Shown here: piece by piece, positions 26,301-53,300 of the stretch
Layout: each line of letters opens with the position of its first letter
Position numbering within the stretch: position 1 is the first letter of the stretch
DNA from: Antedon mediterranea
Lineage: Eukaryota > Animalia > Echinodermata
NCBI RefSeq assembly: GCF_964355755.1
Contig: NC_092677.1
Location: forward strand, 22,803,175-22,867,174
Direction of reading: 5' to 3'
Length of the DNA: 64,000 bases
Translations under genes and position numbers: made by a program
The notes under the pieces: model-generated
The model's database searches: none
Seen by the model: only the letters and a program-made list of their open reading frames with translations
What the model was told of the DNA's origin: nothing

Positions 26301-29300
26301 GTTGACTGTTTAAAATACCGTGTAATATTGTTTAAAGATGTATTGTCCCCCTGAAAATTAATTTTTACAATTTTTTTTTGTTGAATATGCCATTTTAATG
26401 TCTCATAATAGTTATCCACTTTTTCCAAAATTTGGATCTAAACACAATTCATTTACCTGAAATTTTAAGCAAAAAATGGTCAAATTGGCTGCCAGCCAAT
26501 GGATTTTTGGTTGTATTTAACCACTTATTGTGTTATTTTATAAGTGAAAACATTGTGTTTTTTTTTTCTACGGAAGTAATTAACTTGATTAAAACTACAA
26601 AATAACATATATTCAAAATCTGATTTAATTAATCTTTATTTTTCATGTTTTTGAGGACAATACATATTTAAGCTTAATTTATTTTAAAAAATTGGACGTT
26701 TTAGACTGTAACACCCTCTTATTTTAGATTTTGGCCCAGTAGTAGTAGTTTATTTAATGGCAAAGAATTCATATTTTTATCATTAACTGAAATGAAACAA
26801 AATACATCCTCTTCATTAGTTGATGATTTGCTTGGCCAACAAATTTAGTTTTTGGCCATATTTATAATTTGTAATTGGATCTATGATGTTTCTTTTCATA
26901 CCCACTGCTAATTAGTTATTTTAATATGTTTATTTTTAAATTTGTGTACCACAAAGATACTGCAATTTTAGCATTTAAATGATACTTAATTACCTTGCTG
27001 GTGAAAAATAAACACACAAATATGATATTTATAAAACAACAATTGATGGCTAATTGTTAAAGGATACATGTAGATTGTCTCCTTGTATTTTTGGCTATTA
27101 TGCAGTGTATCACATAATTTTACACACTACAGTATCTGTCATAATTTATTGACTGTTAAATTGCAATATACACACAAAATATGCAGAAATATGCAGAAAT
27201 TCACCAATGAAACTTCTGTGTCAATTAGGCAAAGTTAGCACAATCTGTGACTATTATGTAAATTTGTGTGTTTGCTTTTTTTTCACAGGAAGCGAGTAAC
27301 AGTTACAGAATTTATCAAGTTTCTCGCTATGGAGCAAAAGGTAATATAGCTTTAAGTGTTGTAGATAAAGATGATGACAGTTTTCTAAGAAATGTAGCAA
27401 AATTCTACAGCCAGTTTGTACTCAATTACAAGCCTGAATATAATTATAAAACCACAGTTAGCGTAGTAGCAAAGAAATTTACATTCCCACACAAACAATA
27501 AGGAAAGTGGGTACTTTTCATTTATATTTATTTAATAAAAAAAGAGTAACTTAGCAAATAAAATAAACTGTTTACTATGAAATTAGCAGAGAAAATACCC
27601 CAATAGCTGCTATAATTATAGTAAAAATGCTTGTATTATAACAGTAAAGATATATATTTTAGGATGCATTGGCAAATCACCCAGCTGTGGTTCGACAACA
27701 CATGAGGTCATTTCTTGAAAATCCAAGTAGGATGTCCCAAGATCAGGATCCATATTTCACAACTGGAGAGGTACGTTTCTAGTAAATGTTAAATACGGTA
27801 AACTCTGACTGAACTTGCGTATGATGTAAGGCCGTGTTTCCACAGCCAGAACAAAAATTATCTGTTAATTTAAATTGAGTCTCAATTAAAGAATAAAGTG
27901 CACATGATCAGTCATACCGAGCAACCAAGTGCCCAATCACAATGCAACAATTTGTCCTTCAGGTCAAAGGTTAAAAATTATCGCATTTATCCGATTTGAA
28001 TGAGATAATTTTTCTCAAGCGTAATTGGTTAAATCCTGTCTCCACAGGCAGTTTATCAGTTAATTATCGGTTTATATTTATAAGTCAAAGTTTGCAGATA
28101 TTGGAAAAATTTATGCCGAGTGCATCTCTTCCTTTGCACTTCTTATGCAAGCGTGTGAAGTGTTCAAATAGAGACTTCAAACAGATTGGTCACAAATATA
28201 TCATTGGTCAGATGATGCTGTTATATAATGAAGCTGTTATATAATGAAGCTGTTATATAATGAAGCTGTTATATAATGAAGCTGTTATATAATGAAGCTG
28301 TTATATAATGAAGCTGTTATATAATGAAGCTATTATATAATGAACTATTAAAGTAATTAAATGTTTGCAGTACATCATTTAGATTCATAAAAAAGAAATT
28401 GAAATTTAGAATGGATTCTGGATTCAAGCTAAAACTAACTGACTCAGAAATCACACTGTAAATACAGATCTTACTTTACACTCAAACCTTTAAAAACACT
28501 ATTTTAACAAATTAACAGTTAGGCATCATTTTTATAATATTCAATTGTGTAATTTCTTTCTTTTTTAGTTTCTTGACTACTTGTATTCCAATTCAAATAG
28601 TCTATGGGATGAGCAACATGACAAGATAACAGATAACATGGATCAACCAATGTCACATTACTGGATTGCATCTTCTCATAATACGTAAGTTTCATATTGA
28701 ATTATTAGTTAGTATTATATTGAAACTATACACGGTCTAGTAATAACTAAATAATAATAATAATAATATCCTGGATTTATATAGCGCCTAATGTTGTGAA
28801 ACCTCTAAGCGCTGAACATTATTACCCCAGTCATTTTTTATTAAACACATACTCCCATAATGCAGCTAGTAATCAGCGCAAGGTTGTGTCTTGATCTAAC
28901 CGGGTTCCCATTTAAACACCTGAGTGGATATAGGCAAACATAAGTAAAGTATCTTGCCTAAGGATAAAAGTAATGCGACGAGAGTTGGAATCGAACCGCG
29001 ATCTCACGATCAGTAGTCAAACGTCCAACACATTGCGCCACAGGCCTACAGTAAAGATGAGAACATTTATATGAGTGAAAATAGTGTCAGGTCGTGTGAA
29101 ATAGCTCAAGATTATCCTACCTAAGGTCATATTTTAATGAGCGTCGTAAGAGCAAAGTATTCAGATTCATTGCAACGAAGTTGCATTACAAACGGATATG
29201 ATGTCACTCGCTGGCGATTAACCAAACTCTAACGCACGTATAGACCTACCTTCGTTGTTATTAAAAGTAGTAGTGGTTGGGGTAGGAGTTACAGGCCTAG

Positions 29301-32300
29301 GCCTAGACCGAACACTTGGGCTCGGCATTATCGATGGGTTGTCAGGCATACCAACCAGCCGATCGTTTTGGGGTTTGGGTTTATATTTGGTCTAGGCCTA
29401 AAATATCATTTATGGCAGAAAAATGTTCAAATCCCGTACTTGCACCGGCTCCAGACTTATTTACTCGGTCTTTCGCCGCTTTATACGACGACCCCTTCAA
29501 TTTCGTTTGGATATAATTTAAATCCTTCTTTATTATGAGGATGGCCCATCTGCTAACGTGTCCGCCATCTCGTTGAACACAGACATCTTGTTGCCAGTGC
29601 TTTTACGCCAGTTTTTCACTTCCAACCGATCTCTAAACTCAGGGCTTCCCCACAATGAAATAAGGTATTTTACTTCGGTTTCTCGCCAATGCGCATGCTT
29701 CGATGACATTTTAAATTAATTAATATAATAATATTAATAATAATAATACTGTATAGTGTAACAACAAACAAAAGGTATGATTTTTTCGCACGTTCACCAA
29801 TCATAACAAATGGATCAGCTTGGCTATACGATGAGGAGCACATGTCACGATGTGATGTGGCGAATATTTTTTATTTTATTTTTATTTTATTTCATCATCA
29901 CCCTACAGTGACCAAACGTCACCATTAACAGGGCTGAAAGTCGTAAAATATAACATATAATATACAAGCAAAAATCAACAGATAACAAGACAACATTTAA
30001 ATATTACTGACATTAGACAAAACCTTGTGACGGAAACAAGCAAGGGAATCAAAAAAAATATCAACAGATCCATCAATTTTACATAGTGAATGGTATAACT
30101 TAGGCAAACGATTAACAAAACCATTTTTAGTAATATTTACCCTCCCTCTTGATATAGAAAATAAAGCAGGATAACGCAATTGATATTGTGGAACAGAAAT
30201 AGGAAAGTACACTTCAAAATTACCATGAAAAATTGAGTTCACAGCCTTAAAAAGAAAAATTAAATCAAATAACTTACGCCTACCCGCTAAATTAAAAAGA
30301 ACGTCTTTGCTAATAGAACCAAATTTACGCACATAAAATCGACAAAACTTGTTCTGTACACTTTGTAATCTAGAAGACTGGGCAAGAGAAATAGAGTTAA
30401 AAATAACACTGCAGAATTCAAGATTCGACCTAACTAAAGATTTGTATAAAATAACTAATGCCTTTTTATCGTTGATATGTCTGCAATGTCTCCAAAGAAA
30501 ACCCAAAAGTCTATTGCATTTAGAGACTATAAAATCAATATGTTTACAGAAGGTTAATGAACTATCTAAAAAAACACCAAGGTCTTTGTGAACAGAGACT
30601 CTTTCAAGTATAATATTCTTAATATAAAAGTCAAAATAGATGGGTTTTTTCTTAAGAGTAAAAGACATTGATTTGCATTTAGAGGCATTGACTGACATAT
30701 TCCAAGTGTCGCACCAGTGAATGAGTCTGTCAACGTCTTCTTGTAACAACAACATATCATTTAAAGTTTGTATAGACTTAAATAATTTGATATCGTCAGC
30801 AAACATAAGAACATTAGAATGACGAGGAACAAAGGAAAAATCGTTAATAAACATAATGAAAAAAAGAGGCCCCAAAATAGACCCCTGAGGCACTCCAGAT
30901 AAAACTGGAAGCCATTCAGACGCGTTACCATCAAAAGTGACTCTCTGAAACCTGTCCGATAAATAACTTGTAAAAAATAAAATTAAATCGTGATTTAGAC
31001 CAAATTGTTGAAGTTTAAACAAGAGCAACTTATGGGAGACCCTGTCAAAGGCTTTAGCCATGTCTGTATATACAACTTCGCATTGCCCTTTTGCATTTAT
31101 TGCGTCATACGCATGTGACAACAGAACAGACAAATTTGTTTCACAAGACCTTCCTGGGTAAAATCCGTGTTGATGGTCACTGGTGATATATGTTTAAAAA
31201 TTTGGTCGTGAACAATTTTTTCAAAAACTTTAGAAATAGTTGGCAACAATGAAACCGGTCTATAATTGCGTACATCAGATTTAGAACCAGCTTTAAAGAT
31301 AGGGCACACGTTAGCTTGCTTCCATTTTGTATTATTGTAATTTGATTGGCTAGATATCTAACCTAGGTCATATTCATCGATGCGTGACTTTCGTATTGTA
31401 AGCGACGTCCACTAAACTCATACCTTGAGCTTTTGTAGCGTACGAAATATCAGTGTCGTACGAGGTGGCTTCCACTAATCTTTTCCTGGTTCAGACCTAT
31501 GGACTTGTACGCCGCGTACAGTACGAAAGCATAACTCCGTAGGTCTGAACATGCCCTTAAACAGACAAATGTAAGGCATGTTATTATGATTCAATATTTT
31601 GTCTGTAAAAAACATATTTATACATTGTGACTCAAGAGTCTTGAGATGGAACATGAATTGACCAATCAAAATTAATAGATAAATAAATTATGAACCAACA
31701 AAAAATAAGTATCAAACAAAATCAACTAACAGAACAGGTCACCTATCTACTGTTTGATTTTTGTTTAAAAATTCCTATCTTATATGACACCAATAGAGAT
31801 TGGTGTCAGCAGGAAAATTGCATAATACAGTACCTGAAGCACGAGTTTAGAAAAAACAAAAACAATATTATTCTTATTTTTTAAATAGGACAATCTTCCA
31901 AACTACTGTATCAATAGCAAATTTAATGTTATTGATGTTACCATGACGATGATACATGGGAGACAATGTCTTTTGTACCGTACATGATTTATGAAAAAGC
32001 AGAATTATTGATTGTGTTAAATAATAATAATAAAATATTATAAATAATAAATAAAATAACATAACAAATAAAAATGTTTGATATTTGATGATATTTTTTA
32101 ATAACATTGTTTTTGAATAAAGGTATTTAACAGGTGACCAGTTCTCTAGTGAATCTACTTGTGAAGCTTATGTCAGGTGTCTAAGGATGGGATGCAGATG
32201 TTTAGAGTGTAAGTTTTCTCATTTGCCATGTGTTTGATTTGTCTACTCCAAAGCTTGTGAAAAGCACAAGAACCCTTTTCATGTATATTTTAAAACTACA

Positions 32301-35300
32301 GTTTTTACAGACACTTTCCCATGAAGCAAACGAGGGGCATTGCATGTTTTCATACTACGTCCAACACCTATTATATTAAGTAGACACTTAAGATAAGATA
32401 ACTTTATTTATCCTCAAAAAGGAAATTCATTGCTCATCATAAACAAAAAAGAAAACACAATAAATCCAATTATAGGATAGAACAACCATTCATATAAAAA
32501 CATCTAAAAAATACAAAACAGTTAAAGCTCAGGTACAGGCATGAATTTTAAACATAATATCTGGTTAATTGCACATAAATCAAATATTTGTAATAGAAAT
32601 CTAGACGAAAAAACATTAATATCCCTTAAAATGGTCAAATACAAAATTTGACAAAGTTATATTTAATAGCTATATTTAGTCATCTGATAAGATTTTTTAC
32701 CCGCCGTTTATTTTTCATAGCTTTTTAAAAATGCCTCTCTATTTACAACATTTGTGTATAAAAGAATAGAGATTTTGCTGTGTAATTTGAACTATCCCCC
32801 CACTGATAAGAAAGTGCTTATTTTCAACAAGCTCGTGTAACACAAATAAAATCCCAAAAATAATGAAACATAGGACAATCTATAGATCGATAATTATTGG
32901 AATGTCTGATCAATATAAATTTTTTGCCCGGACCTGGCCTGATGGTGTCTCCTTATATATATATATATATATATAATTTTTTTTTCTATTTTTGTTTAGT
33001 TGTACAGTATCTCCATTAAGATCCAATCCCTGACACCCACAGCATTGTCTTTTTTTTCCAGTAATTTTCCATTGGATTTATACTATTTTTCCTGTTATAT
33101 CTTTATTTTTGGCACAGCTAGCTTTTCAATTTAGAAATAAAACGCATCCAGGTGCATCGATTTGAACCATTCCGCTGGCACTAAATTTCTTTGCATATGT
33201 TTTTTAATGTATTTCCTTTTATTATTTACATGGTAATAGTAAACATAACAGTATTTTATAGAGGATTGCACAATTTTGTGATAACCGAAAAGAAAAAAGT
33301 AAGGAAATCCGAATTAGTCTTAATATTTGTATATTTCAGTGGACTGTTGGGATGGGCCTGATGGACTTCCCATTGTATATCATGGTCATACACTCACCAC
33401 TAAGATACGCTTTTTAGATGTTCTTATTGCAATCAAGGAACATGCTTGGATTGTTTCAGAGTAAGTGTTTTTGTTTTTGCTGTATATAATGACCAATAAA
33501 AAAAGTTGTAGCCATGTAACTTGCTAATCATGGCAATCTAACAACAGGATTCTGAACTCAATTTGCCAAGATAGGAACTCGTAACAGTACTTTGATCTTA
33601 TGATGACAGTGGAAAATTCATAATAGACGGTTACAGCACTGTACTATCTACCTATTCTCCAGCACGCTATCTATTTGAGGAAGCCAATTGGCCAATCAAA
33701 AATCAGTCAAGCGTTTAGGGGATGTAGAACTGATCATGTTGCAACTCTTTGATCCACCGGAGCTCTGCATCCTCTTGTTAGATTGCCTTGATAATAAAGT
33801 AAATTTTTAAATTCAAACTGTTGCTAATTGAATAGATAAAGTATTGGTTATATTTCTAGGCTGCTAATTGTTATAGGCCATTCCATACATACAACTATTG
33901 CTCGAGTTTGCACATTTACTGTATCCATGCAATATGCCTGCCACTGTACACAATTGAATGGGAGGCTTGAAAAATCTGCATCACTTGCAGTATTTATTCA
34001 TATAGTCACTATTCTCATAAATAAACAAAAGGCAATTGCTCAATTTATTTGCTGGCTCATTGAGAGTAAACATGCTAGCAAGATAATCACATATTATACA
34101 GATATTGCCTGCTTAGAGTTTAAATATAAGATTTGACATCCCCGAGGGAATGATATTTTGTTCGAGGGAATATATTTCCCGAAGCGCTGGCTGAGGGAAA
34201 TATAATATATTTCTCGAGAACATAATATCATTCACAAGGGGTTGTCAAATCTAATATTTCACCGATTATTACCGATATATATCGGTTACAATACACACAC
34301 ATTCACGTATTTACATAGGCTATGTAATATAATAATATATAATGACAATAATAATAATTAATTGGTTGATAATGAAAATCAAGAGTGAGAATAGTCTATA
34401 CCAGATTCTGCACTCACTTCTCTTCTTTCAAAACTTGAACATTCTCTATTTAAAGACACCTTCCCTACGTTTTTTAGATCTATTTTAAGATCACAAACTA
34501 TATTTAATGTAAAAATAATACTATATGGTCCTATTATATTAGCGGCCCGCTATAAATCCCAAAATGCATTGCGTGCGGATTGATATTTCTGCTTTTCTTC
34601 TGTAATTAACCCACTTTTCGATCGATCGCGAGGCCAAAACAAATGGAAAGACTCCTAACTTTTCAGCAAAAATACCGGGTTTTCCCCAATAGGTATCAAC
34701 GGAGTCTGGCAAAAATAGAAAGACAATTAAGGCAGCAACTATACAACGTCAGGCTAGGTATATAGCTAGCGTACGATGTTCGTACGTTACCAATGTTTAC
34801 CAGCTAGGCCTACAAAACTAAGCCTAGCTAGGCTAGGCCTAAAGACCGTCAACGAGAGGTCATTCGTCACGAGCTACTTAGGTAGTGCATTGTTTCTCAC
34901 TTTTTATCATAATTTACCATACAACGTACATTTAAGACAAGAAATGACATGGTTTAATGTTTTGAAAGTAATGTATATGTATTATTTTTACAAAACGTCA
35001 CAAATTGTAGGGCATGTGTCTTTAATTCAAGACATTTCTTTATCAATTTGTTTTATTTATTAATGCATAGAAGTAAAAATTAAAAATACCTAGAGATAAA
35101 CATTGATATAATAATAATAATAATAGTATTCTTATATAGCACTTACTGTAAGAAACAAAAAAAGGATGATTAAGCAGATAAACCATCTTTACCTCTCTGA
35201 TCTCTAGCACTTTGAAGCTCTCATATGAGAACTTGCTGTAAAAGACTTGTGAAAAAGGCATCTGTCTTTCCTATCCTACCAAAATAAAAAATAAAAAGGT

Positions 35301-38300
35301 GTTCCTCAAGATGTGTTTTTCAAATATCCTAGAACTAGAAGATAGATAAAACAAAAAGACCCCTTCCCTACGTTTTTTAGATCTAATTTAAGATCACAAA
35401 CTATATTTAATGTAAAAATAATACTATATGGTCCTATTGCGATAACTTTTTTTGTCTTTAAATGGTTAAAAATGTGAAAAATAAGTTGATTCTAATAATT
35501 ATAGCGGCCCGCTATAAATCCTAAAATGCATTGCGCGCGGATTGATATTTTTGTTTTTCTTCTATAAGTCACCCAAAACAAATTGAAGTCTCCTAACTTT
35601 TCAGCGAAAATAATGAGTTTTCCCCAATTTGTATCAACGGAGTCTGGCAAAAATAGAAAGACAATTAATGCAGCAACTATACAATGTCAGGCTAGGTATA
35701 TAGCTAGCGTACAATGTTTGTACATTACCGATGTTTGCCAGCTAGGCCTACAAAACTAAGCCTAGCTAGGCTAGGCCTAAAGACAGTCCACGAGAGGTCA
35801 TTCGTCACGAGCTACTTAGGTAGTGCATTGTTTCTCACTTTTTATCATAATTTACCATAAAACGTACATTTAAGACAAGGAATGACCTGGTTTAATGTTT
35901 TGAAAGTAATATATCTGTATTATTTTTACAAAACGTCACAAATTGTAGGGAAGGGGTCTTTAAACAAACAACAACAATCATACAAAACAGGTCCTTTACT
36001 TCATTAGAGTAATTGATCATGTGCCTTAATTAAATGAGAGATAATGTTTTTTTACAAAGAGACACTTTATTTTAAATGGTTTATATCAAGCCATGACCTT
36101 TAAATACCACTTACTATATAAGTGTTGGAACGTATTATATTTTAATATGTTCTTATTGTATGTAGTAATGCATTGAACCTTTGAAATGAAGGTGAACTTT
36201 AATTTGTATTAATTAGGGAAGTCTAAATTCATCTACATTTTATTTTCTACAAATAATCATTTTTACTAACACATAAATATCTGTTTTTCTTTTTTTTTCT
36301 GTATTAGCTATCCACTTATTTTGTCTATTGAAAACCATTGTGGTCTAGCACAGCAGCGGAACATGGCAAGTACATTCCAAGAGGTGTTTGGAAGTAAGAA
36401 ATACATTGAATCAATATTTAATCATTGAAAGACATGCCTTGGCATGCTGAGGTCATTCATCAGTGCATTCAAAAAGTAGAACAAATCTAAATTCATCCAA
36501 CCCCAAAATAAGTGTCTTGTCTTATATATGTTATGTTCCTATATTTATTATCTTCGCGCTGAATGTAAATATTTGGTTCACAACATGAAGTTAGAATTAT
36601 GTCTAACTTTTTTGCTGTTTAGGGCGTTACATGTCTTTTTTATGTGTTTTAGATTTATATTTTTATACATTGCAAATTTTATCATTATGAATGAATGAAA
36701 ATGTTTTATTTTATGAATAATTTTTGTTTTTATAATGGTTTAGATATACAAATTGTATATTTGTTTATATGCATTTTACAGCTGCTTTTTGGGTAATAAT
36801 ACTGTAGTATGTTGATCGCATGTGAAAAAAACTATTATTATTACATCATGTATTTTCAGGTTTATTATTGACCCAGCCAATTGATAGAGATGCCAATATT
36901 CTTCCTTCTCCCAATCAATTAAAAGGTAAAATCATTCTCAAACACAAGAAGATTCCAGATCAAGGCACTGAAACATTCACAGTACCAGTTAGCACTGATG
37001 GTAAGTTATCTATCAACAAACAAACTCCAACTAATTTAAGCCAAATCTCGCCCCATACAATAATGAAAAATATGTGCAAATAATAAATGTCTATGATTGG
37101 ATTGGAGAGAATATTTTCATGAGGCAAGTAGAGTGATTTTTTGAATTTTTTATTTTTCCTTATTTATAGAGGGTGACCCTAAATAGCGTATTCTGACAAT
37201 CAAGGGATTGAGTTATAATAAATGTCTGTGTGTAACAGTGACTGTGTGTATACTAGTACACCGCGGTAACCCCCTACTCATCTCGAAAGATGTACTAGGT
37301 TCTTTAAAGTGCACATGAGCCAGATGTGTACACTGGACCTATGGTTTATAGTCCTTATCCGAGAAGACTCGTTCTACCACCAGAACCATAGAGCGAGTAA
37401 TCCTCGAACCCTTGCCAATATTAATATGTCTTAATCGCTCGGCCACTCACTCAAATAGACCATTTCATCTTTCAACCGATGGGACTGTTTCTCTATTCTA
37501 CAAAGACAAAGCATTTATTATAATATCTATATCATTTACATTGTAAACTTACATTCAGTTAATTTGCCGTTTCATATTGAATGTTGAAGGCTAGGATGTC
37601 ATTAGAAATGGCGCATTCACAGGTTGGCTTTCGATAGTGACAGGGCAATCATTTTTTTAAACCTAAATTTTTGATTGTGATGCATAATAAACCAACTATA
37701 TACTTGTATAGAATACATAATTGAGAGTTCCATCACAGACAATGTTTAGTACATTTGACTCACTTCCTATTTTTTTTTGGTTGTAAATGATCAACTCACT
37801 GTATATGTTTTTTTGTGGTTATTTTCAGTTGCTGACCTTGATATAAGTAACACACTTAAAAATGGTATTTTGTTGCTTCAGGATCCAGCAGATATGGTGA
37901 GTGGCAAAAAGACGCATTGAAATACACAGTTTGATTGTTTTACATTGTAGCCTATACTAGAATGCTGAAACACGCATTTAAAAAAAAGAAATAAAATAAT
38001 TTACCAAATATGTATCAATAAAAAGAAAAATTGATAGAAGCCGCACAATTTAAAATACATAAATTTATTTAGGTGAGAGAGTTTTTGTGATTTTGTGGAT
38101 ATTTATTTGAATTTGCAGCACAGTTGTGTGCTCGCATCATGCGGTAACATTGGCCTCCTGGCCAGAAAATGCTTAGAATCCAAGACCACAGTGCTGGTGG
38201 TCTTGGGCATACATTTATAATTATTGCAATGGGTTTTTTTTTTAAAGAATTGCCATTGGCTTCATCATGGGCTTAAAACCTGGCTGGCCATCCCAGATGA

Positions 38301-41300
38301 GTTTAAACCACATTGGGACAATACTTTCATTTGTTTTATTTTAAGTCTATAGGCATATATGGCTGGCCAAGGATAACAAATAGTAAATTTGTCAATTTCC
38401 TATCAGATATGTAAATCTCCCTGATGCAGGTGCTGTTTGTGGAGCTGTTCATCAAGGTAAACTCCTACTCATCTCGAATGATGAACATGAACTGGGTTCT
38501 TTAAGGTGGACACAGGCAAACTATGTACATGTTCCACCACCAGATCTAGGAGCAAGTCGGCCTCAAGCCCATACCGATATTGTTTACTCTTTGAGTACAG
38601 TAAATAGTGCCCCTGCTTTAACTGCTCCACCATTTGATGGAATAAAATAAATAAATGTTAAATACTAATTTTTGCACTAAAAAATGTTGAAATAAATTTT
38701 AATTGCATAAATGACAGGAGTGGACACCTCACTATTTTGTTCTAACTGAAACCAAGATGTTTTACTCTGAAGAACATGAGTCACAAGCCACCCAAGATGA
38801 TGAAGATGATACTAGCAGTACACTTGAGGTCATTACATTTTGATATCAAATTATAATGCTATTTGTAATACAATTAAGCTGCTGCTATATGCTGCTAAAA
38901 AATAAAAAAATGAAACATTTTTATTGACTTCACAATTTTACTATTAGGTTACTTCATATAACCTATTGTTTCTGTCAAGTATCTTTATTTATTAGGCTAT
39001 CCACTAATTGTATCGAGCAGATCACCTATTGTGATTGTTGAATATCTCACTTGTTTATTCTAATTTGTTGTTTTGCATAAATTTATTAATGTAAACAACG
39101 TAAATCGTAAATGAAGAAAGTGTAAGCTTTTCTATGTTTGGCATAAGTTTGTACGCAAACTGCTGGCGAGAACATTTGATCTATTTAATGCAATCTTGAT
39201 ATAAATGGTTTATTTTTTTATATATATAGACAATTTCTATTGATGAGCTGCATTTTTCAGAACCATGGTTTCATGGTAAATTAGACAAACATGAAGGGAT
39301 GCAACCAAGAGCAGTAGCTGATAAATTACTAACAGAGTATCAAAAGGGAGATGGAACATTCCTGGTACGAGAAAGCGATACCTTTAAAGGAGACTACTCG
39401 TTATCATTTTGGTAAGTAACAAATATTTTTTATTGTACATGAATAAAATCCCATGCCTGAATCATACCAACTCATTCCTACTTGATTGCTTGGTTGATTC
39501 AAGTACCATACAATAAAGGGTTTAAGTTCACCCTCGAGTACAAGCCCTTTTAGTCAATTTTCATGCAAAATGAAGCGAACCGATATAAGTCCACTATAAT
39601 TTTCAGATCTGAATTTGCAGTTTGCATCTCGGAATACGCCATAAATCAGACCTTTTTGAAGCTGGAATTATAGACCTAGGCTAGGCAGCAAGTAGACACA
39701 TGCCTAGAATACGCTCCAAGGGTTTTAAATTGCACACTCCATTGGCGTATGTATGAACAATAAATAAAATTCCTGCTAATTTTGATGATATAGCCTTCCT
39801 TTCGGTCCTTGGGTATAATCCCACCCATTATCCTGTGCTGTAATACTAGCATATTAAAAAAGATGTATATAGATATATTACCATGCCATTGATCAGTGTA
39901 TTGTATAAGAAATGATTAGAAGTGAAATAAATACTTATGTTATAAGGGATATTGGACTAGCATGTAAGACGCATGGGTCTGTGCTATATTGCATGTAAAT
40001 AAGCAAGATGCTTTACTCTCATTGCCTAGTCCTTTGGATGGGATGTAAAGCCATTGGCGCTGTGTATACATACATTGCATGTAAGCACAATAAAGAACTT
40101 GGTATACATTATTCGGAATAAATATGGGATTGCATCGAGACGGTAATTTATACAAAAGAGTAATCTGTGCATGCATATATATAAGCCAGTTATACACCAT
40201 GACTGTATTGGTCGATTTAACGTTTGGTCTGACAACAAAACGTAGCACAATTTATAATGTCTTTTTTAAACTTTTCAAGAATAAAAAATGGTCAATCAGT
40301 ACGAAGCGAATACATACATAGTAGGCCTAAATTCTTCTTTTTAGTTTATCCTTCTTCTCTTTACAAACATAATAGTAGCCTTCCCAAACAAGCTCAATAG
40401 CCAAGCCTGCTTGTACAGGGTATATGGCCTAGGAGGAAGCTTACCGAACAGGATGTGGAGCTGTGGAGTGGAGCTGTGGCTTGGTGGTTATGATGCTTGG
40501 CTACCAATCTAAGGGTCCTGGGTTCAAGTCCTGTCATATGTCAGGGTTTTTTTCTCATGACAATTTACAACTCCACTCCCAAAGACTTAATAATAAGTCT
40601 TTGTCTATGTAGAGCATCTTGTGTATATGTTTGTCTTATATGTTCTAGTGCAGTATATGGAGAGCCATCTCGATAGTGCTTTGCACTCATGGCAATCCTC
40701 AGGGTGCTGCACCGCTGTGTTGTCATGTATGTTTGCCTGAAAATTAAATAAAATAAAAAAAATAAAGAGACTTTATACAATCGTCGCGTTCTGTTAATTT
40801 ACCGTCTCGATGTGGAAATTCACTATTGGGCTTTCTGGTGAACAGTGTACTAAAGAGGTCACCCAGTATAAGTCAGAAATAAATCGAAATCAAACTTTAT
40901 GCTGTTGCATTTGAATAAAAGCCTAAATTTTTTTTAATCAGTTTTAAGAAAACATTTAGTTGAATTGTGTGTATGCCTTCTATAATTGATGTGTTTCTGT
41001 TTTCTCCATCTTTCACTAAGGGCGCTAAACAAACCAAACCATTGCCGAATCAAGTCCAAACTGGAACGGGGTATATCAAAGTATTACCTGATTGAAAACC
41101 TATTATTTGATAGTCTATTTAGCCTCATAAACCACTATCGACAATTTCCATTACGCAGTCGGGATCTGGAATTATTATTAGGAGAGTCGGTCCCACAACC
41201 CCCGAGTCACGAAAACAAAGAGTAAGTGAAGTAGCATGGGTATTGAGTTGACACTGCACCATGTCTCCTGTAGTGTGCCTGCTTGTCATTTGTCACATTA

Positions 41301-44300
41301 ACATCATGTTTTTATTTGTTTTGCATGGGTGTTTCATTCATTCTTCTGTTACAGGTGTAGGTCAAAGGTTAACCATATACACATCAAGAAGAAACATTTA
41401 GGCCAAGAGATTAAATATGTAGTGACTGAGTCATCGATGTTTTCAAACCTCTATGAGCTTGTAACTCATTATCGAAAACATACTTTGAAGGCTCGTAATG
41501 GCATGACGATTTTACTAACTGAATCTGTTCCCCAACTTAAACACCAACATCACGAAAAAGAAGTGTAAGTTTGGACAAAACAAAATTCATCAAAATTTTA
41601 CCTTTAAGTGTAATTATTTTTTTATAAATAGGCCAAAAAATAGCCTTTAATAGTAAATTTCAGTTCTTAGAATTAAACAAAAATATTTGAATACTTTATC
41701 AAAATTGCTTTAGTTAAAATAAAATCCAAAAATTTTTGTCTTGCTTTTGCAAAAAATCAATAGTATTGCCATTCTTCCCACAAAAAAAAAAAAAGCATTT
41801 AAAACAATTTGTTTTTATTTATAAAATCAAATGCAGAAAAATGATGATCATTGCCATAAATTATCACCATTCTTAACATTACTGTCTTTATTTCTTATGA
41901 ATTCATTTTACTCTACTTATTGAAAAACTATACCACAATTCATGTTGCATTTTATTTCTGAACATAACAATATTTAATATTTACAAGCATAGAAATTGGC
42001 TTTTTCTTTCATACAACTTTTTTTATTTGTTATTTAACTATCTTGAGTTCAGTTATAATTTTTAGGATTAATTTTCCAGAAAAAGAGTAAGCATGATGTT
42101 TTTATGTTTTAACAACATAATCTTGTTTTTTGTCTTTGACATTGCATGTTTGTTTATTATTTTGTGTGTTAACAAATTTTGCATTATTATAACTCAAATA
42201 ATATTTTTGTATTTCTCTAACTAACATGAATGATCAAAGAAGTACTGCACTGTTTTGTAGAAAAAAATTGTTGAAATTTAAATGTGTCTTGCAGTGCAAA
42301 ATGTTGACATTTTTCGCGACTTCTACTTGTAAAATGTGTAAAAATTAAACCATTTTTTTTTTCAAATTAAAACTACTAATAAATCATCTATATGATAACT
42401 CAAAACATAGTCCTCTACCCTATAAGCCACATGACCAATACTAACCCTTTTCGAGCTGCGGAACTATTTATTTCCCATTTAACCATTCAGCTATGTAATA
42501 TGTACCTCCATCCAATCCAATCCAAAACGGCCTTTACTTATTGAACTACCATGTTTTTGTGCCAGTCCATTAGACGGGTTTTATGATATAGATATAATAT
42601 TAAAAATAAGAAATGTCAATATAAAGCATTGTTTGCTGCAGTACTTATTTGATCTTTCATGGCACATTCTTAGTATTTACTAACTTTGTTGTGTATATTG
42701 ACAGTTGAATGACATGAGTGCGTTTGAATCTTAGTAATGTAATAATGAAATATATAATACAAATATGTATGCAAAATGTACAAAAGCAGCACCTGTCACC
42801 AGGTATAAAGGTGGCAGATGCAGCCTGTGTTGTTCTACCCATACTGTACAAAAGCAGCACCTGTCACCAGGTATAAAGGTGGCAGATGCAGCCTGTGTTG
42901 TTCTATCCATACTGTAAAACCTCGAAAAAAAGCCCTGCCCTTTTTAGTATTCAAACTAAACTAAACTAAAGAGGAGGGCTTCTTTTCGAAATGAATGCCG
43001 TAAATTTTGTGAATTTCTACTAAAACATTACCTGCCAATGTTACATATTTGTGATCAAAATACCATATTAAACTGTCAAATGAATGTATGATATAAACTC
43101 GATCATATATTATATCTGCTTTAAGTTATCTGGCATTAAATCAACTTGTTCTTTTGAAATTCAATAAGTCTATCTCGAAAACAAGCCCATCGAGATTACT
43201 TTTGCAGTCCAAAGAGGCGACTTCATTTCGAGATGGGCTTCTTTTCGTGGTTTTACGGTATTTCTTGCCTAAACGTACATTCTATAAATTATTAATCAAA
43301 CCAAACAAGATTGGCATATGAAATAGATTATGTGTTCAACAAACTGTATGTGTGTGGTGTTATTCTACCTTGAATTTATTGTTGTGATTGTTTGAGTCAA
43401 GTGACCAAGTAGTGAAAGAGTCAGAGTACAGCAAACCAAAATGTAGGCACAGGTTTGAGGCACTCCTCAGCCATAGCAGGTTTGAGGCACTCCTCAGCCA
43501 AAGCAGGTTTGAGGCACTCCTCAGCCATAGCAGGTTTGAGGCACTCCTCAGCCATAGCAGGTTTGAGGCACTCCTCAGCCATAGCAGGTTTGAGGCACTC
43601 CTCAGCCATAGCAGGTTTGAGGCACTCCTCAGCCATAGTCCTTAGGCAAAACAAACATAAACTTGTTAAGCATCACAAATTTAAAGCTGCCTGTTTTATT
43701 TTTAATTTTTTTACAAAGTACCAAAAAACAACCAAAAATTAACATTTGATTATCCCAGCCCTGAAATTTATTCAGAGGTTGATGATTAACAAGTGTATTT
43801 TTTTATTTGGCCTTATGGCCTTAAAATTAGAGGTTGAGTGTACACATCTTGCTTGAGTGCACTTGAGAACCCAGTTCATCTTTTCAGAAATAGTGGGGAG
43901 TTACCCCAGTGTTACAGATGTCGGCCTGTTGTTAATCACTGCAGTGGCCTCTTGGTTATGGAAACCAAAAAGTTGGGATACAAATTTAGACTGAATGATT
44001 TTGATGAAGTTTTCCATATGACTTTACATTCATATAAAAGTAATTACTATAATATTTGCTTTTTTTTCTAGATGGTTTCATAACCGATTAACCAGACATG
44101 AAGCAGAGAATATGTTAAAACGTATACAAAAAGATGGTGCCTTCTTAGTTCGCAAACGATTTGATACCAATGATTCATATGCCATCTCATTCAGGTTAAT
44201 ATTAGTATGCTAAAAATTGTTATCTAATAATGTGTTTATCCCCATGGACTTAGGGGCGGCCTCAGTTTGTTATTACATGCAATCCACTGCATGTAACCGA

Positions 44301-47300
44301 TAACACCTGAAAATTGAAATGTGTATACCTGGTACTACTGGGTATAGGTAAAATAACTGTTTAAACATATTTAAATAATATTTATATTGCTTTATAACGA
44401 TGATTTAAAAGGGACTTTAGGCCCACCCCCTCCCCTAAAATCTAACTCTTTAAAATAATATAATAACTATTTATATTTTTCTGCAACCTGACGGGATCGT
44501 TTTTATCATTTAAAGCCGTCAAATGTGTATACCTGGTACTACTGGGTATAGGTAAAATAACTGTTTAAACATAATTATTTAAATAATATTTATATTTCCT
44601 TATAAAGATAAATTAAAAGGGACTTTAGGCCCCACCCTCCCCCTCCCTCCTAAAATTTAACTTTTTAAAATAAAATAATGACTATTTTTATTTTTCTGCA
44701 ACCTGACGGGATCGTTTTTATCATTTATGAAATATTTAGCCCCCCCTAATCTATAATGCTGGGTCCGCCCCTGATTAATACAATATTCAAAAGATATAAA
44801 ACTTGAACATTTGTGTCAAAATTATTACTTTTCAAAAATATACTTGACAAATTCTGTGGCGTTTATCTGTAAACTTTCAGAGCGGAGGGCAAAATTAAGC
44901 ATTGTCGTATCAAAGCGGAAGGCAGACTGTTTGTTATTGGTACTGCTCAGTTTGAAAGTTTGTCTGAGCTTGTATCCTACTATGAGAAGTACCCCCTCTA
45001 TAGGAAGATGAAGCTTAAATTGCCTGTGAATGACGCTGTTGTAGAACTTCATGGGCAGGTATGTGATTTGGAGGCTGCATTTCTTCTAATTTCAAGTGGT
45101 ATTTTTTTCTAATTTCAAGTGGTATTTTTTTCATACATATCCAACAGTAAGTCGCAAATTATATGATGGATGAACTTTATAATTTAACTTCAAGTCTCAC
45201 TTTAGGCTTAGGGGGTTGAGTTGAAAGAGTCATGAGTTACAACTCTGACCCTAGATCAGGATTGAACCCTGGAACTTGAGATTGGAAGGCAATCATGTTA
45301 ACCACCAAGTTACAGCTTCACTACTCAATGTTCACTGTTTGATTTTGAATTTGATTTGAATTTAATTGGAAAATCATCATAAAAAAATACATACAAAGTG
45401 ATAACATAAATCACGAACATTACAAATAATACATAAATAAAAGATTTTCCAGGATAGCCCAAAAAGCATATCAGCGTATTTCCATTGGGATCCTTTAACA
45501 ATCTGAAATATAAAATATAAACATTACAAAGTATTGCATTAAACATGTAAATATAACAAAAACAATAATATAGAAAACAAGTTTAATTAAAAGACTATGA
45601 TTGACTTATAGTTATTTGGTTGAAAAGAAATGTGATTTAACTTTAAATTAAATTTGTTTTCTATTTGCTGAATGGAATGAGGTAGGTTATTCCATGCCTT
45701 TATGCCTGTGTAATAAAACGTTTTAGATATTTGACTATCAGATTTAGGAACTGAAAAACCATTGACACTACTTCTAGTCATATAATGGTGGTTAGATGAA
45801 ACTCTTTTAAACTTTTCAGTCAAATAAGGTACTGATTTTCCATAAAAAATCTTATGAACATGATTAAGTTTGAGTTGGCAAATTCTATCCTCTAGACATA
45901 ATTGATCGATTTGGTTAAATAACTATACTGATACTAAACTGATTCATTTATTTATTTATTTATTGATAAGTGTGTCTATTCATAATAATGCTGTTTATTT
46001 TAATAAAAAAGATTTTAAAAAAAGATTTTAACTTTAGAAATATAATTAAACAAAATTTGTATTTGATAGAATGTTGACGGTGATGATTCTATTTATGGTC
46101 CTTCGGATCTGTATATTTCACCTAACTACATTGTACCAAAGGTAATGTATTGTACTCTACATTTATTCAATTTAATCATCTATTCTGGTTTTTTTATCAT
46201 CTTGAATAGATTGCCAATGCCACTCTGATCATGTAGCTTGGTTTTTGATCTCAGCCATAAAAAAAGAATGAAACCAATGAATGGAATGAAATAAACAATC
46301 ACACAAATGATAATGTTTTTTTTTTGATGTGTGATAAAAATTATACAAAGAAAATCTTGTTTTGTTTACTTGGAATCAGATAGCAATACTGTTTTTCAAT
46401 CTTATGTGTTTGCAGGTTGTTGTAAAGGCTCTGTACGACTACCGAGCTCAAAGAGATGATGAATTGTCCTTTTGTAAACATGCAATCATCACTAATGTAG
46501 ATAAACAGGATCACGGATGGTTAGTTGACTTTACTATAGCATCTTTGAGAGTGCGATATTGGTATATATATAAACCGCTTCTGATTGATTGATTTGATTG
46601 AAATTTATATTTATACTGGGTAACCTCTTCAGTCAAAGATTGGTCTCCCAGAGGGCCCAGTTGGTGATCAGTGGCTTTGATGTACTAATACACCGGGGTA
46701 ACCCCCTACTCGTCTCGAAAGATGTACTAGGTTCTTTAAAGTGCACACGAGCTAGATGTGTACACTGGACCTACGGTTTATAGTCCTTATCCGAGAAGAC
46801 TCGTTCTACCACCAGAACCATGGAGTGAGTGGGCCTCGAACCCCTGCCGATGTTATGGCTACGTAATTACGGTTCCACTGTCTTAACCGCTCGGCCACTC
46901 ACTCACTCTGGGCTTCTATGGAGGTCTACACTAGAAATCATTTGTAAAAATCTTACACTTACAATCTTACTCCCCTTGATTGGTGAGTTTCACCACATTT
47001 ATGGTAAAACTGTTGATCTGTGAAAAGCATGTCATAAGGTCATAGATGTGTTGCTGACTCGCAAAGGTGTTGGCAAGTTTTAGATGGCAAGCAGCAATTG
47101 AAAACTGCCATCTTATCTATTGGGAAAAGCTACTGGGATATTTACCCAGACATTATTATTATTGTAAAACCTACTACCAAAAAATGTCCAGGGTGAATGA
47201 GACTTTAATTACATCTTCTGAACTGTTAAATGGCTCCATCTTGTACTGAATTCTTTCACGTTGTATATTCTGCAGGTGGAAAGGTGATTATGGTGGCAAA

Positions 47301-50300
47301 AAAAATATGTGGTTTCCATCAAATTATGTAGAAGAAGTGACACCACCTGTAAGCGACACCAGTCCTGAATCAGGACTGCTAGGAGATCTACAAAAAGGAT
47401 CTATTGATTTGATACACTGTAGCTGTGGTAAGTTTAAGATTAAGTTTCATGAAGGAAAAATCTATTGGAGGTAAAGATCCGAGTATTCATTGTTTTACTT
47501 CAATGGAAAGTGTGGTTTAAGGCCAAGTTTTTTTGATATTTTATGGGCTTATCCAGGTGTGAGCTTATATCCACATGTGAGCTTAATCTAAGTGTGTAGT
47601 TATATCCAAGTGTGCAGTTATATCCAAGTGTGGACTTATATCTAAGTATGGGCTCTTATATCCAAGTGTGGGCTTATATCCAAGTGTGGGCTTATATCCA
47701 AGTGTGGGCTTATATCCAAGTGTGGGCTTATATCCAAGTGTGGGCTTATATCGATGTGTGCAGTTATATCCATGTGTGGGTTTATATCCAAGTGTAGGGT
47801 TATATCGAAGTGTGGACTTATATCTAAGTATGGGCTCTCATTTCCAAGTGTGGGCTTATATCTAAGTATGGGCTCTCATTTCCAAGTGTGGGGTTATATC
47901 CAAATGTAGGCTTATATTTATATTTAAGTACTGTGTGGGCTTATATCCACATGTGAGCTTAATCTAAGTGTGCAGTTATATCCAAGTGTGGGCTTATATC
48001 TAAGTATGGGCTTATATCCAAGTGTAGGCTTATATCCGTGGTTGGGCTTATATTCAAGTACTGTGTGGTCTTATATCCACATGTGAGCTTAATCTAAGTG
48101 TGCAGTTATATCAAAGTGTGGGCTTATATCTAAGTATGGGCTTATATTTAAGTATAGGCTTATATTTAAGTATGGACCAATATCCAAGCCTTATAACCAT
48201 GTTTGGGCTTATATTTAACACTGTGTGGGCTTATATCCATGTGTGAGCTTACAGTATATCAAAGTTACTACCAACTATGTGATTATATCCATGGGCTTAT
48301 AGTCTATAGAAGTGAGAAAAAAGAAAATCCTATTAGCTTAGATTAAAGATATCAGTTCAAATAATTGCTTTTCTTACTTTTTATTAAATAAATTAATAGT
48401 TTTTTGCAATAATATTTAATAAGTGAAAGGATAGATGCAATGCTACAAAAAACTAAAATATATTATTTAATTTGGTAAACATTTTTTTTTTCAGATATTA
48501 TTCCAGGAGGCAAGGGTATTCAACTATTCGTATTCTCAATCGTTTCACCAACTCTTCACCAAACACTAGAAATAGCTACACAATCTCGTTTTGAACTTGA
48601 TGATTGGGTTCAAACAATACGTAAAATATCGTACAGGGCGGGAGAACGGGTAAGTGAATAAATATTTTAATCTCCATATCAACATGTCTGATTGACGGCA
48701 GTATCACATTGAAACCTACTCCTCCCCTTCTATAAAATAACTCATTTCTCTTACATTAAAACCTACTCCTCGCCTTCTATAAAATAACTCATTTCTCTTG
48801 TCTGATTGACAGCAGTATCGCTCACATTGAAACCTACTCCTCTTCTATAAAATAACTCATTTCTCTTGAAAAATAGTCACCAACATTTATATTTTGTATG
48901 GCAAAGAGAACTGAAGACATTTTATTTTTAAGAATATTTTATTAAAGGAAAAATAAGTCAATATCCTGACATTTGGTTTAGAACAGAATTGGCAGAGTTG
49001 GTTGGTGTTATCCCAAGGCACTTTTTTCCACACAAAAGTTTTGCTCTGTACAAGTATGTAAATATCAGAGTAGCATTGCAGAGAGGATTTTCAATGTTCT
49101 GGTGTTGTGTCAGAGATTATTGTGGCTTTTGCATCAGTTTTTTATATCCAACATTAAATAAACAAATTATTGTTAATTTCTTATCATTTTCATCTTTATA
49201 ATTGATATATTCATTATATAGTGTTTCCAGAATTAAATCTGTAAAATATTAATATTACATGTTTGGTTAATTAATACAACTTTTTTTTAACCTAAATTAG
49301 GAAAGCATTATTTTTTTTTTAAACTCGAGTCCTCTGCGTACAAATGCCTTTGTTGTTAAAAGATAAAGGAACTTATTTTTTTTTAAATTGCTATAGACAA
49401 GGGATGCTCAAAAAAGAGAGCGACGACTAAGAATAGCTAAGGAGTTTTCAGATTTGATTGTATACTGTAGATCTGTGACATTCAGGGAGGATGGTAAGTA
49501 CCTATGTCAAGACGTAGTAATGTATAAACATAAAATATTACACATTTCAACTACATGCTTCTTGTGTCATGTGAGTGCAGTCAACTACAGAGCCCTCACT
49601 CTGTCCACGACAGTGGCTCTGTGTTAACTAACACAACTACTTAACCCCCTACTTGTCTCAAAAGTACTATGCTCTTTGACATGCATACAAGCATTCTGGC
49701 CATATGGTTTTGTGAATGTTAATAAATATATTTTACACCGATTGTTTAAATAATTGTTATCCTTTAAAATGTCTATATTCTTTTCAACTAGCTATTCCTG
49801 GAAAATATTATGAAATGTCATCATTTCCTGAAACTAAAGTAGAGCGTTTTCAGACAACATTAAGACGTTATAACATGACACAGTTAAGTCGAACTTACCC
49901 GAAAGGTCAACGTATTGACTCATCTAACTATGAGCCAACATTAATGTGGAATTGTGGGTGTCAGATGGTTTCTCTAAACTACCAAACACCAGGTATGTCT
50001 TAAGAAAACATGTTATGACAATATTAAAGAAAATAGTGATTAAGTACCCACATAAATGTACTTAAACCTGTAAAATAAAAAGAGATAAATTTGTCACTGT
50101 ATCAGTAAAGTTTGTATTTCTGCCGTTATCACGAACTCCCTTTAATTAAAAAATGCCTCTCTATCTAAAACAGTTTGTGTACGTGTCACAAACTCATTTT
50201 ACGTATGTTTCCGAACGGTTGAAAATACTTTAGGAACTCCCTTGTGACATAAAAGTATACACACAAAATCCACAAAGTTGTAAAACTCAAAAACAAAGCT

Positions 50301-53300
50301 TTAATTTCAATCAACTTCAACTTTCAACAATCCAGTAAGCACTTCAAACAAAACAGTTTCACAATAACTTTTACAATCTTATTTCAAAATATTATGCTTC
50401 AATCAAAAATTTTTCTCCCTTCTTACAATTGTTATATTTCCCCTTATATACAATATGTTCATAACCTTCTAGATCATTCCTTATACTTCTTATTCTATTG
50501 GATTACAGTTTCTATTAATAGCACTTCTGGAATGTTCCTGATTGTTCTTATATTAATTATACATGGTTTCTTAAATCAAAAAATCTTATTCCAGAATGTT
50601 CATGTAGATACTTAGATGTTACTGTATATGTTAAGGAATGGTAATTTATTACACCCTGTATTTTGATTTCACAATTATGTGATGATTTAAATTACATTTT
50701 TTTATAAACTAAGTAATTTAAAACCTTTAATAAAAATTAACCAAAGTATCAATATAGTGTAAATTATTTGGTTTCTTAGTCTATTTCGTAGTTTATTTTA
50801 CATCAACATTTTCATTTTTACACTTGTGCTTAACAGCGCATAGAGACTATTTGTATTTTGCGCTATATAAATTTAAACCATTATCAAAGTGGTCACATCC
50901 AATCACGATTATGATACACTAGTCATATATGATTAATTAATCTATTTGTTGTTTATTGGAATATTACACAAAGTTTCTAGTCAATCAAAAAGGAGTGGAG
51001 TCTTACCAATTACCAGATGTTGCCACACAATTTATATACAGTACTTGTATGCTCCAATTGAACCTTGAGTTGTTCAAATCAATTCATTTCTTGATCCAAA
51101 AAAAAACAGTAACCAAAATATGAAAGTTTATGGACAAATTTTTCTTATAAAAATATTATAATGAATGATAACAATTTGACTTGACAGATCGGCCAATGCA
51201 GCTGAATGAGGGCTTGTTTCAGATGAATGGACGATGTGGCTATCTTTTACAACCAGAGAGTATGCGAAGTGAAAACTATGATCCTATAGACAAGAGAACA
51301 CTTCAGGGTGTAGATGCTATCCATTTAACTGTTGATGTAAGTTAATTAACTTGTACATAATTATGTATATGCTATAAATATATACATCCAAAGGCAAAAT
51401 ACTGAAAAAATGACAATGCTGTGGGTATCATCAGTGGCTGGATCTCAATGGATATACAAATAAAAAGGCGAAAAAGCTAAATCAAATCTTACATATTTTT
51501 TCTTTAATGGAATTCATTCCAAATTCATTCCAATTCTGAATGAATTAATCAGTCAAAAACAATAAAATTAAAATAATGATTGGTATTGCAGTGTGTAAAG
51601 TATGTAAACACAACATTTTCTAATGTTTTATGTATATCTATTACTAGACAAAACATACCGTCCAGAAAGGTATTTGTGACCTATACTTACATTGCTTTAT
51701 ATGCCGCATCTTCTGTATCTTCAATTCATTGCTATTATACTTTACCCTTGTTGTTGCTACCCCTACATTTGTCACTAGGTCAGGTTAATTAAAAATATAA
51801 TGATTATGAAGTCAACAAGTACAATTAACTTAATGCAATAACATTTGATACATTTTCTCATTTCTGTATGATAATAATTTATTTATGAATGTTTTTTTTT
51901 TAGATTATTGGAGGTAGACATCTAAGGAAAGCAGGAAGAGGATTGATTAGCCCATTTATTGAAGTAGAGATAGTAGGGGCTGAATATGACAGTAGAAATA
52001 AATTCAAGACAGCAACAATTGGTACGTATACAGTAATTATATCAATTGATTATAGAGATAATTTAACAATATTCATAATATGCAATATGTAAGTTTTGTG
52101 AGACTTAAACCCACATTCTCCAGTATGTATTCACATTGATATTTTAATTACAATATTTTCAATCAATTAGTAATAGAACAACAAACTACCTAGTCTGGGT
52201 TCCAGACGAAGTTGTTTTGTCTTAATATTAGTAAAAAGATAAATATTTTGGCACATATGGCGTTTCATACGTATACTACTTGATTTTGGATACTCCGTCT
52301 GGGGAAACACGCACAAGTCACGTGGTTTGACACCAAGAATTCTTGGTGCATACGATTATCCGGTTGACTAGTTTCAGCTGCATGCGATTGGCTACTCACT
52401 CGTACACTGTTTTAATATTCATATTTTAGAATTTCAAAGACTCAACAACTAAGATGATGCGCATGCGCTATGTTACGTTTAGACAATGTGTACTTGGGTA
52501 CATTTATGAAAGTTTCTAAAGGCTAGAAATTATTTTATATGCCTAGTAGTCTGGTAAACATTTGATGGGATTTTTCCCAAGAACATGAAAACTCGTCTTG
52601 ATATGATAGGCTTCTAGCTTCTCCGCAAATCAAACATTGAATGGATCATTTATTACGCGGAGATAATTTTGATTTAATTCCCATCCATACCCTGTCCTGT
52701 TCTGTGTGGTGGTGTAGCCATGTTGTGTGCCGGTGGTGGTATGTATTGTAGGCCTACATTATTGGCGTTTTATTTGGCAGGTCATACGTGCGAATTGAGC
52801 AGGACCTACGAAAAAGGCCTAGGCCAAGGACTAAACAATTGGTAAACAACTTGGCATTACGATTTTATATTTCAACAGTCTCGATCGTACATTCAGCACT
52901 GCACGTACTCGATCTTTTTCATTTTGAAACAAAATGATCATTGGTTGATTCGAAATCCATATTTACATACCGCCCGCCCCATATAGCCAAATACGGTATG
53001 ATAACCTACGTCATTCTTATCGGATGTTTGCGGTCTGCAAATCGATTTCTATACGTGTTTCACAAGTCTGTATTTTCAGACAAAAATCGCGGTCGAAATA
53101 AAAACAAATAAATTTTTAAAAAAGACAATACAGACTTGGGGCAAGTCTACAAAGTACCTAGAGATGGACATATTGCGCATTCGGCTAAACTGGTGGTAGT
53201 CACTGTATTGTGCGCATGAAAACACCACTTTGGTCCACCATGATTCAAATCCTGGTATATGTATATGTATATTCTAACTGGTGTGTAGATTGGAATACAT

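Follow-up and report, generated by a model that had tools for sequence, protein, structure and literature searches.

FGFR1-3 occur in IIIb and IIIc forms, which exchange one half of an extracellular, ligand-binding Ig domain through the use of one or the other of two exons (PMC5703972), and FYN occurs in FynB and FynT forms, whose alternative exons are used in a tissue-specific manner and alter binding (PMC9741552). In FGFR2, the intron that separates the two exons holds UGCAUG, via which Fox2 represses the downstream exon (PMC2880598); the sea-urchin Fgfr has a single such exon (PMC5703972). The locus considered below is a candidate for a further system of this sort: two adjacent exons, 18A and 18B, in the phospholipase C-gamma (PLC-gamma) gene of the crinoid Antedon mediterranea, within a stretch of 64,000 nucleotides (NC_092677.1, positions 22,803,175 to 22,867,174; hereafter the window). 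We are highly confident that they represent an echinoderm-wide pair of mutually exclusive exons of the N-terminal SH2 domain (nSH2) of PLC-gamma, and that this pair is real and selected.

The exchanged region has been studied in PLC-gamma1, whose residue numbering is used throughout and is consistent with how PMC6035297 names the residues. In PLC-gamma1, docking on receptors is the task of nSH2 (PMC3532599); the EF and BG loops of this domain touch FGFR1 adjoining the phosphotyrosine pY766 (PMC9203054). More generally, the BG and EF loops, by their length and make-up, set both the access to the pocket of SH2 domains and their specificity (PMC7337045). The junction between nSH2 and the C-terminal SH2 domain (cSH2), residues 658-668, is allosterically linked to pY783, and residues 645-649 of the BG loop belong to the same network (PMC6035297). 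The linker joining both SH2 domains has been described as inflexible, and it is cSH2, not nSH2, that binds the catalytic core (PMC3532599).

The features of the locus (window coordinates) are as follows:

5091..56608, forward strand: PLC-gamma gene, 32 coding exons by exact spliced alignment of protein P0001; 1275 amino acids in the A form and 1278 in the B form
39230..39411, forward strand: exon 17, shared; N-terminal half of nSH2 with the FLVR arginine, ending in phase 2; present as a spliced contig in run X1
41021..41221, forward strand: exon 18A, presumably the ancestral form, with H-C-R-I; it runs from betaD to the BG loop and includes the nSH2-cSH2 junction; 201 nucleotides (nt)
41222..41354, forward strand: intron between 18A and 18B, 133 nt; two GCATG motifs (41234, 41323) and two branch-point-like sites (+30, +80)
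41355..41564, forward strand: exon 18B, the presumed derived copy; H-I-H-I, a Gly insertion in the BG loop, and a junction that is altered and two residues longer; 210 nt
44072..44194, forward strand: exon 19, shared; N-terminal half of cSH2

A Pfam scan of P0001 and P0013 found PH, EF, PI-PLC-X, two SH2, SH3, PI-PLC-Y and C2 domains, in the arrangement of a PLC-gamma: the X and Y catalytic halves are split by PH-SH2-SH2-SH3-PH, and C2 comes last. P0001 contains exons 17, A and 19, and P0013 contains exons 17, B and 19, each letter for letter. P0001 (which exon A matches at 100%) is the RefSeq PLC-gamma isoform X2 of A. mediterranea and P0013, in the same cluster, is isoform X1; the two differ solely in the exon 18 stretch. 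Both exons are preceded by AG and followed by GTAAGT, both are in phase 2-2, and both joins translate to annotated proteins. The three frames of 18B hold 8, 0 and 7 stops, so only the coding frame is open. The coordinates, lengths, phases, splice sites and 133-nt spacer given in the initial annotation of this DNA were exact, its numbering of the exons as 17, 18 and 19 holds in the 32-exon alignment, and the FLVR (betaB5) arginine lies, as it had said, in shared exon 17 and hence is common to both forms. Its account of the swapped exons was right in part: they do reach from betaD to the end of nSH2, but they supply, besides betaD, the EF region, alphaB and the BG loop, the nSH2-cSH2 junction, an allosteric element that had been overlooked. 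Likewise, 18B does have the one-residue BG-loop insertion proposed for it, but it is three residues longer than 18A, since two further residues lie at the junction end.

That 18B is a copy of 18A is indicated by the comparison of the two peptides, which are 41% identical over 58 residues (estimated beforehand at about 40%), with an E-value of 5e-14 for the pair. The top Protein Data Bank (PDB) match of both exons is the C-terminal half of the PLC-gamma1 nSH2 (E 7e-21 for A and 2e-9 for B; 18A matches this half in PDB 3GQI/4EY0). Moreover, 18B is nearer to 18A than to exon 20, the corresponding exon of cSH2 (41% versus 28% identity), which argues for its derivation from 18A and not from the cSH2 exon. 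The two homologous exons are thus adjacent, on the same strand and 133 nt apart in one gene; no third copy of exon 18 and no other duplicated exon was found within the window. A phase-2 intron cuts both nSH2 and cSH2 at an equivalent site after betaC (39411/41021 between exons 17 and 18; 44194/44881 between exons 19 and 20).

Evidence for the splicing of each exon to both of its flanks comes from run X1, a single sample of assembled contigs with four joints between 39225 and 44210, all GT..AG: exon 17 to A (depth 29.9), 17 to B (7.8), A to 19 (20.9) and B to 19 (8.6). Across this interval of the same sample, neither an A-to-B nor a 17-to-19 joint was present. Some contigs of the run start and stop where A or B does, among them one of 211 nt that spans 41354-41564. 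The run, aligned alone at 98% likeness, is, like the other four runs available, not recorded as RNA and was taken to be RNA-like because of its GT..AG joints; its introns are also covered, at a depth of 7-10, so DNA or unspliced RNA must be present in it too. The joints have 27-30 letters on their short side, and contig depth is a poor gauge of expression. In the DNA-like runs X2 and X3, a 2043-nt contig runs straight across both exons with no differences; the assembly may have been made from these runs. A first contig alignment gave 15 of 74 joints as listed, all at repeats, and is uninformative on splicing. The four joints and the two RefSeq isoforms agree with the mutually exclusive use that the initial annotation had put forward, and the two junctions of 18B, with exon 17 and with exon 19, that it wanted counted are both seen, in this one sample. 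In the older Lytechinus pictus model P0002, A is joined to B and the model then ends; later models of the species separate A from B.

Cluster look-ups showed that A/B pairs of isoforms differing in the exon 18 stretch only are found in eight echinoderm species of four classes:

Crinoid: Antedon mediterranea, P0001/P0013
Sea urchins, four species: P0142/P0143, P0146/P0030, P0145/P0147 and P0154/P0156 (P0030 is labelled 'Lytechinus v', and P0154 is in the Diadema cluster)
Sea stars: Patiria P0032/P0157 and Asterias P0033/P0162
Sea cucumber: Apostichopus P0007/P0018

These pairs bear out the earlier proposal of an old duplication kept under selection. The B exon of P0147 is identical to that of the L. 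pictus model P0002, in which A precedes B in tandem, in the same order as in the crinoid. When 260 region-covering proteins (277 were fetched) were scored, 14 did better on a B profile, which was built from 10 of these 14; all 14 belong either to echinoderm clusters or to one Logan cluster whose B exon groups with that of sea cucumbers. Full-length B-type proteins are encoded on three Logan contigs of 4.1-6.2 kb (P0034, P0165 and P0166). Among the 33 matches of a full-library search with exon B were that of Apostichopus and two divergent proteins, P0278 and P0279, which scored slightly better on the B profile and are without the Gly insertion. Searching by indexed words with only exon B, a weak method, gave no match, B isoforms surfacing as cluster members only; a metagenome scan gave a single locus, L001, with an uninformative 18-residue match at a contig end; and the ESM Atlas gave generic SH2 clusters only (at most 0.84).

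Outside the echinoderms, no second exon type was found in the 115 nSH2-covering proteins among 123 listed from 14 groups, which include molluscs, arthropods, a cnidarian, lampreys (three proteins), tetrapods (14) and hemichordates (four); three large clusters, of 81-177 members, were represented by 15 members each, and absence from the annotation is not absence from the genome. A second holothurian PLC-gamma gene (the P0008 and P0035/P0167 clusters) has an A-type exon only in all of its listed members that cover nSH2.

Other variants affect the same domain. In P0155 (XP_071490068.1, Diadema cluster), compared with P0154, residues 528-585 encoded by exon 17 are replaced by a homologous copy of 58 residues with FIVRQ for FLVRE. 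Diadema therefore appears, to judge from these models, to swap the N-terminal half of nSH2 as well, through another mutually exclusive pair; no copy of this alternative exon 17 was found in the crinoid window. In P0159 (Patiria isoform X3), both copies of exon 18 are skipped in frame, which makes the protein 67 residues shorter and would delete half of nSH2. In P0014 (Amphiura isoform X1), an insert of 23 residues lies between exons 17 and 18A, inside nSH2.

The age of the pair can be approached through the tree, in which a branch with support of 90/91 separates the 10 B rows from the others (67 columns). Four independent duplications, when forced jointly, were rejected by the approximately unbiased (AU) test (p-AU 0.0005 under LG+G4, which is prone to long-branch attraction). 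The Gly insertion in the BG loop, which lies outside the tree columns, is present in the B exons of crinoid, urchins and stars and in none of 101 distinct non-B sequences, 99 of which have a stretch of 67 residues. Further residues are shared: Asn at position 648 is found in the B of all four classes (9/101 non-B), Asn631 in that of three classes (3/101 non-B) and Thr656 in that of three classes (0/101 non-B). The shared Gly insertion and the joint test make a single duplication, before crinoids split from the other echinoderms, the best reading of the aligned sequences. Crinoids and the other echinoderms parted some 480 million years ago.

Since then, A would have stayed ancestral and B would have diverged faster. 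Identity between classes is 61-78% for A and 31-53% for B; within urchins it is 90% for A and 82% for B (the latter for Diadema versus the other urchins). The core residues H607, I610, F629, L635, Y639, L653, V657, Q659 and H663 are kept in the B of all four classes. Such alignments suggest that B is constrained yet evolving faster than A.

The B exons have a mosaic character. H-[IV]-H-I-K-K is common to the crinoid B and the sea-cucumber B (P0018, P0034), and these animals are not sister groups. The B exons of urchins and stars keep H-C-R-I, and it is with these only that the crinoid B shares the Gly insertion. The pattern could be due to convergence, to partial gene conversion from A, or to the loss of a third exon.

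This distribution of residues bears on what the swap does. The initial annotation had given prominence to the change of Cys to Ile at betaD5 and of Arg to His at betaD6. However, C608 (in 101/101 non-B sequences) and R609 (in 99/101) are changed only in the crinoid and sea-cucumber B, and Cys and Ile at betaD5 are both found in SH2 domains of p85 that bind the same pY-M-X-M motif (PMC7337045), so this part of the proposal is not supported in the form given. The marks common to the B forms are, as far as can be read from the sequences, the BG loop and the nSH2-cSH2 junction, where Pro660, present in 89 of 101 non-B sequences, is found in none of the eight B sequences listed.

The B form, with the FLVR arginine supplied by exon 17, is predicted to fold as an SH2 domain, a model that the initial annotation had called for: the mean predicted local distance difference test score of the B tandem is 91.5, from an alignment rich in A-type rows, and the nSH2 half of the model superposes on the Grb10 SH2 domain with a Z-score of 18.8 and a root-mean-square deviation of 1.2 A over 106 residues. 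An altered orientation of the tandem in B was considered, as the model is about 10 A off the solved tandems; the A-type urchin control is off too, and nothing was therefore concluded on domain orientation. The net charge is higher in B (+4 to +7) than in A (+2 to +4) in 7/7 species pairs, which are related and not independent.

The explanation that we prefer is that 18A and 18B are tandem copies spliced as alternatives between the shared exons 17 and 19, which would yield two full-length PLC-gamma proteins sharing the phosphotyrosine-binding arginine and differing in the BG loop, the EF region and the nSH2-cSH2 junction. The marks of B, above all the BG loop that is one residue longer, would reshape the groove that reads the residues after the phosphotyrosine. 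Accepting this, the A and B forms probably differ in their preference for, or the strength of their docking on, phosphorylated kinases and adaptors.

Another possibility, less probable although compatible with the preferred explanation, is that B mainly retunes allosteric coupling, and not the choice of peptide, via the junction and the BG loop, which would relay Tyr783-equivalent phosphorylation and priming by the receptor; B would then depart from A in its basal activity, in the threshold for its activation or in how it leaves the receptor. This idea was raised because the junction is tied to the phosphorylation of Tyr783. It gains from the swapped exon carrying both the pY783-linked junction and the BG-loop residues of the same network, from the loss in B of Pro660, from the inflexible linker, and from the retention of H-C-R-I in the B of urchins and stars. 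However, the most distinctive mark shared by B sits in the BG loop, an element that contacts the peptide, and the catalytic core is bound by cSH2 only.

It is rather improbable that B keeps the fold but binds receptors poorly, in such a way as to damp or uncouple PLC-gamma in some cells. The breaking of C608 and R609 in the crinoid and the sea cucumber, the much faster divergence of B than of A between classes, and the skipping of both exons in Patiria P0159, which means that the loss of a functional nSH2 may be tolerable, would all be expected on this basis; the nine core residues kept in all four classes, the 82% identity of urchin B and the position of the FLVR arginine in the shared exon would not. 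As for B being a decaying duplicate or an annotation artefact spliced as noise, its low depth in run X1 (joints at about 8 versus 21-30, close to the intron background of 7-10) and the lack of any close match to the crinoid B outside its own isoform could be cited, but this is very improbable and largely refuted by B exons that are open and in frame in eight species of four classes, by the two B joints seen in X1, and by the conservation of core and shared derived residues.

How would the inclusion of both exons be prevented? A and B together stay in frame, so decay cannot explain their exclusion, and a frame-based decay was ruled out as its cause; double inclusion would instead be blocked at splicing. 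The skipping of both exons leads in the crinoid to a TGA stop. One candidate cause is steric blocking in the A-B intron, which has 133 nt, whereas the 31 introns of the A-form transcript have at least 224 nt. The threshold for such blocking is about 50-60 nt. Of the two branch-point-like sites, that at +80 is in better agreement with the 81-nt AG-free zone than that at +30, and purely steric blocking is possible but not favoured because this likelier branch point is probably too far away. The A acceptor (AAG) is the weakest in the gene, at -4.8 versus a median of 8.9, and the B acceptor is at 4.7, when scored with a matrix derived from the remaining 30 acceptors of this gene. A docking-site/selector pairing was tried and rejected: in none of 8 comparisons did a duplex exceed the 8 shuffles, and no inverted repeat looked telling.

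The choice between A and B would be regulated by cell type or stage. The two GCATG motifs in the A-B intron, where 0.09 are expected (two are found in 0/61 other exon-flanking windows), offer a lead only: possibly, an Rbfox-type protein acts on them to favour A and silence B, as in FGFR2.

Several points weigh against the picture given above. The evidence for splicing rests on one contig sample with its 27-30 letters on the short side of the joints, and the missing A-to-B joint is weak evidence because contigs drop rare forms. No B isoform is annotated in Amphiura (two isoforms), nor in Acanthaster, in the RefSeq entry for Asterias rubens or in Diadema setosum (one model each). The B branches are long; the sea-cucumber B does not have the Gly insertion; and AU tests made on single lineages do not reject separate duplications (p 0.17 for the crinoid, 0.34 for urchins, 0.34 for stars and 0.09 for holothurians). 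The lower identity of B than of A between classes fits relaxed constraint as well as new function. Finally, GCATG was one of 12 motifs tried, and its pair was matched in 206 of 5000 dinucleotide shuffles.

In starfish eggs, the fertilisation calcium wave needs the SH2 domains of PLC-gamma (PMC2132564). In this classic system, the upstream docking partner has been studied with SH2 constructs; if echinoderms have two nSH2 variants, such work has read one of two forms, and which of them is used by eggs, embryos or coelomocytes becomes a simple question of reverse transcription PCR or of junction counts. In addition, nature would have provided in this pair a comparison of two states, from which the roles of BG-loop length and the SH2-SH2 junction in PLC-gamma specificity and allostery could be read. 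It would probably enable a single gene to respond to two distinct groups of signals from kinases. More tentatively, and with some doubt, a regulated splice switch might, since the common ancestor of echinoderms, have rewired which kinases activate PLC-gamma (for example, the Src-driven egg calcium wave versus adult or immune receptor kinases), and in Diadema a single gene could then give as many as four docking domains.

Elsewhere in the gene, an open reading frame of 398 amino acids (29997-31193, minus strand) in intron 10 encodes a reverse transcriptase domain (RVT_1, E 9e-25) and is likely a fragment of a LINE-type (long interspersed nuclear element) retrotransposon. The intron 3' of exon 18B holds a 27-nt minisatellite of seven copies (43450-43638) and a 68-nt duplication (42777-42916), and high-copy repeats lie at about 40400-40900.

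In the open-access literature, no description of this PLC-gamma exon pair was found; most subscription journals were outside this scope, and an earlier mention is possible. Papers on the cloning of echinoderm PLC-gamma appeared in subscription journals. There is no such description in the accessible parts of PMC5703972, PMC7574550 and PMC9741552, nor in the supplement of PMC8373072, and PLCG has no match in six supplementary files of PMC5703972, where sea-urchin exons may stand under other identifiers. Both isoforms are already automatic RefSeq models, and therefore the novelty is in recognising a conserved switch, not in the sequences. Human PLCG1 and PLCG2 have no row in a supplementary table of human tandem-duplicated exon substitutions that lists FYN and FGFR2, in keeping with the earlier remark that no such pair was known in the vertebrate genes.

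The echinoderm gene is like vertebrate PLCG1 and PLCG2 in its domain order, the nSH2 of these docking on receptor phosphotyrosines (PMC3532599, PMC9203054), and it is unlike them in its second exon type, which is not seen in the 14 tetrapod and three lamprey proteins. If the pair is what it seems, a phosphotyrosine reader has been diversified by splicing where vertebrates, which have two PLC-gamma genes, used gene duplication. The pair is, from all that its structure suggests, a tandem-duplicated mutually exclusive exon of the FGFR and FYN kind that is new in PLC-gamma. As in FYN, tandem-duplicated exons, which here too would be mutually exclusive, lie in a signalling enzyme that contains SH2 (PMC9741552); unlike FYN, where the exon encodes the SH2-kinase linker and the N-lobe of the kinase, that of PLC-gamma encodes betaD to BG of the SH2 domain and the SH2-SH2 junction. 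As in FGFR1-3, half of a binding domain is swapped by such exons (PMC5703972), and the crinoid GCATG motifs are in the same place as the UGCAUG that acts in the FGFR2 switch (PMC2880598). The FGFR exchange, however, concerns the extracellular reading of a ligand and is found in chordates (PMC5703972), whereas that of PLC-gamma concerns the intracellular phosphotyrosine reader of an effector enzyme and is found, so far, in echinoderms only.

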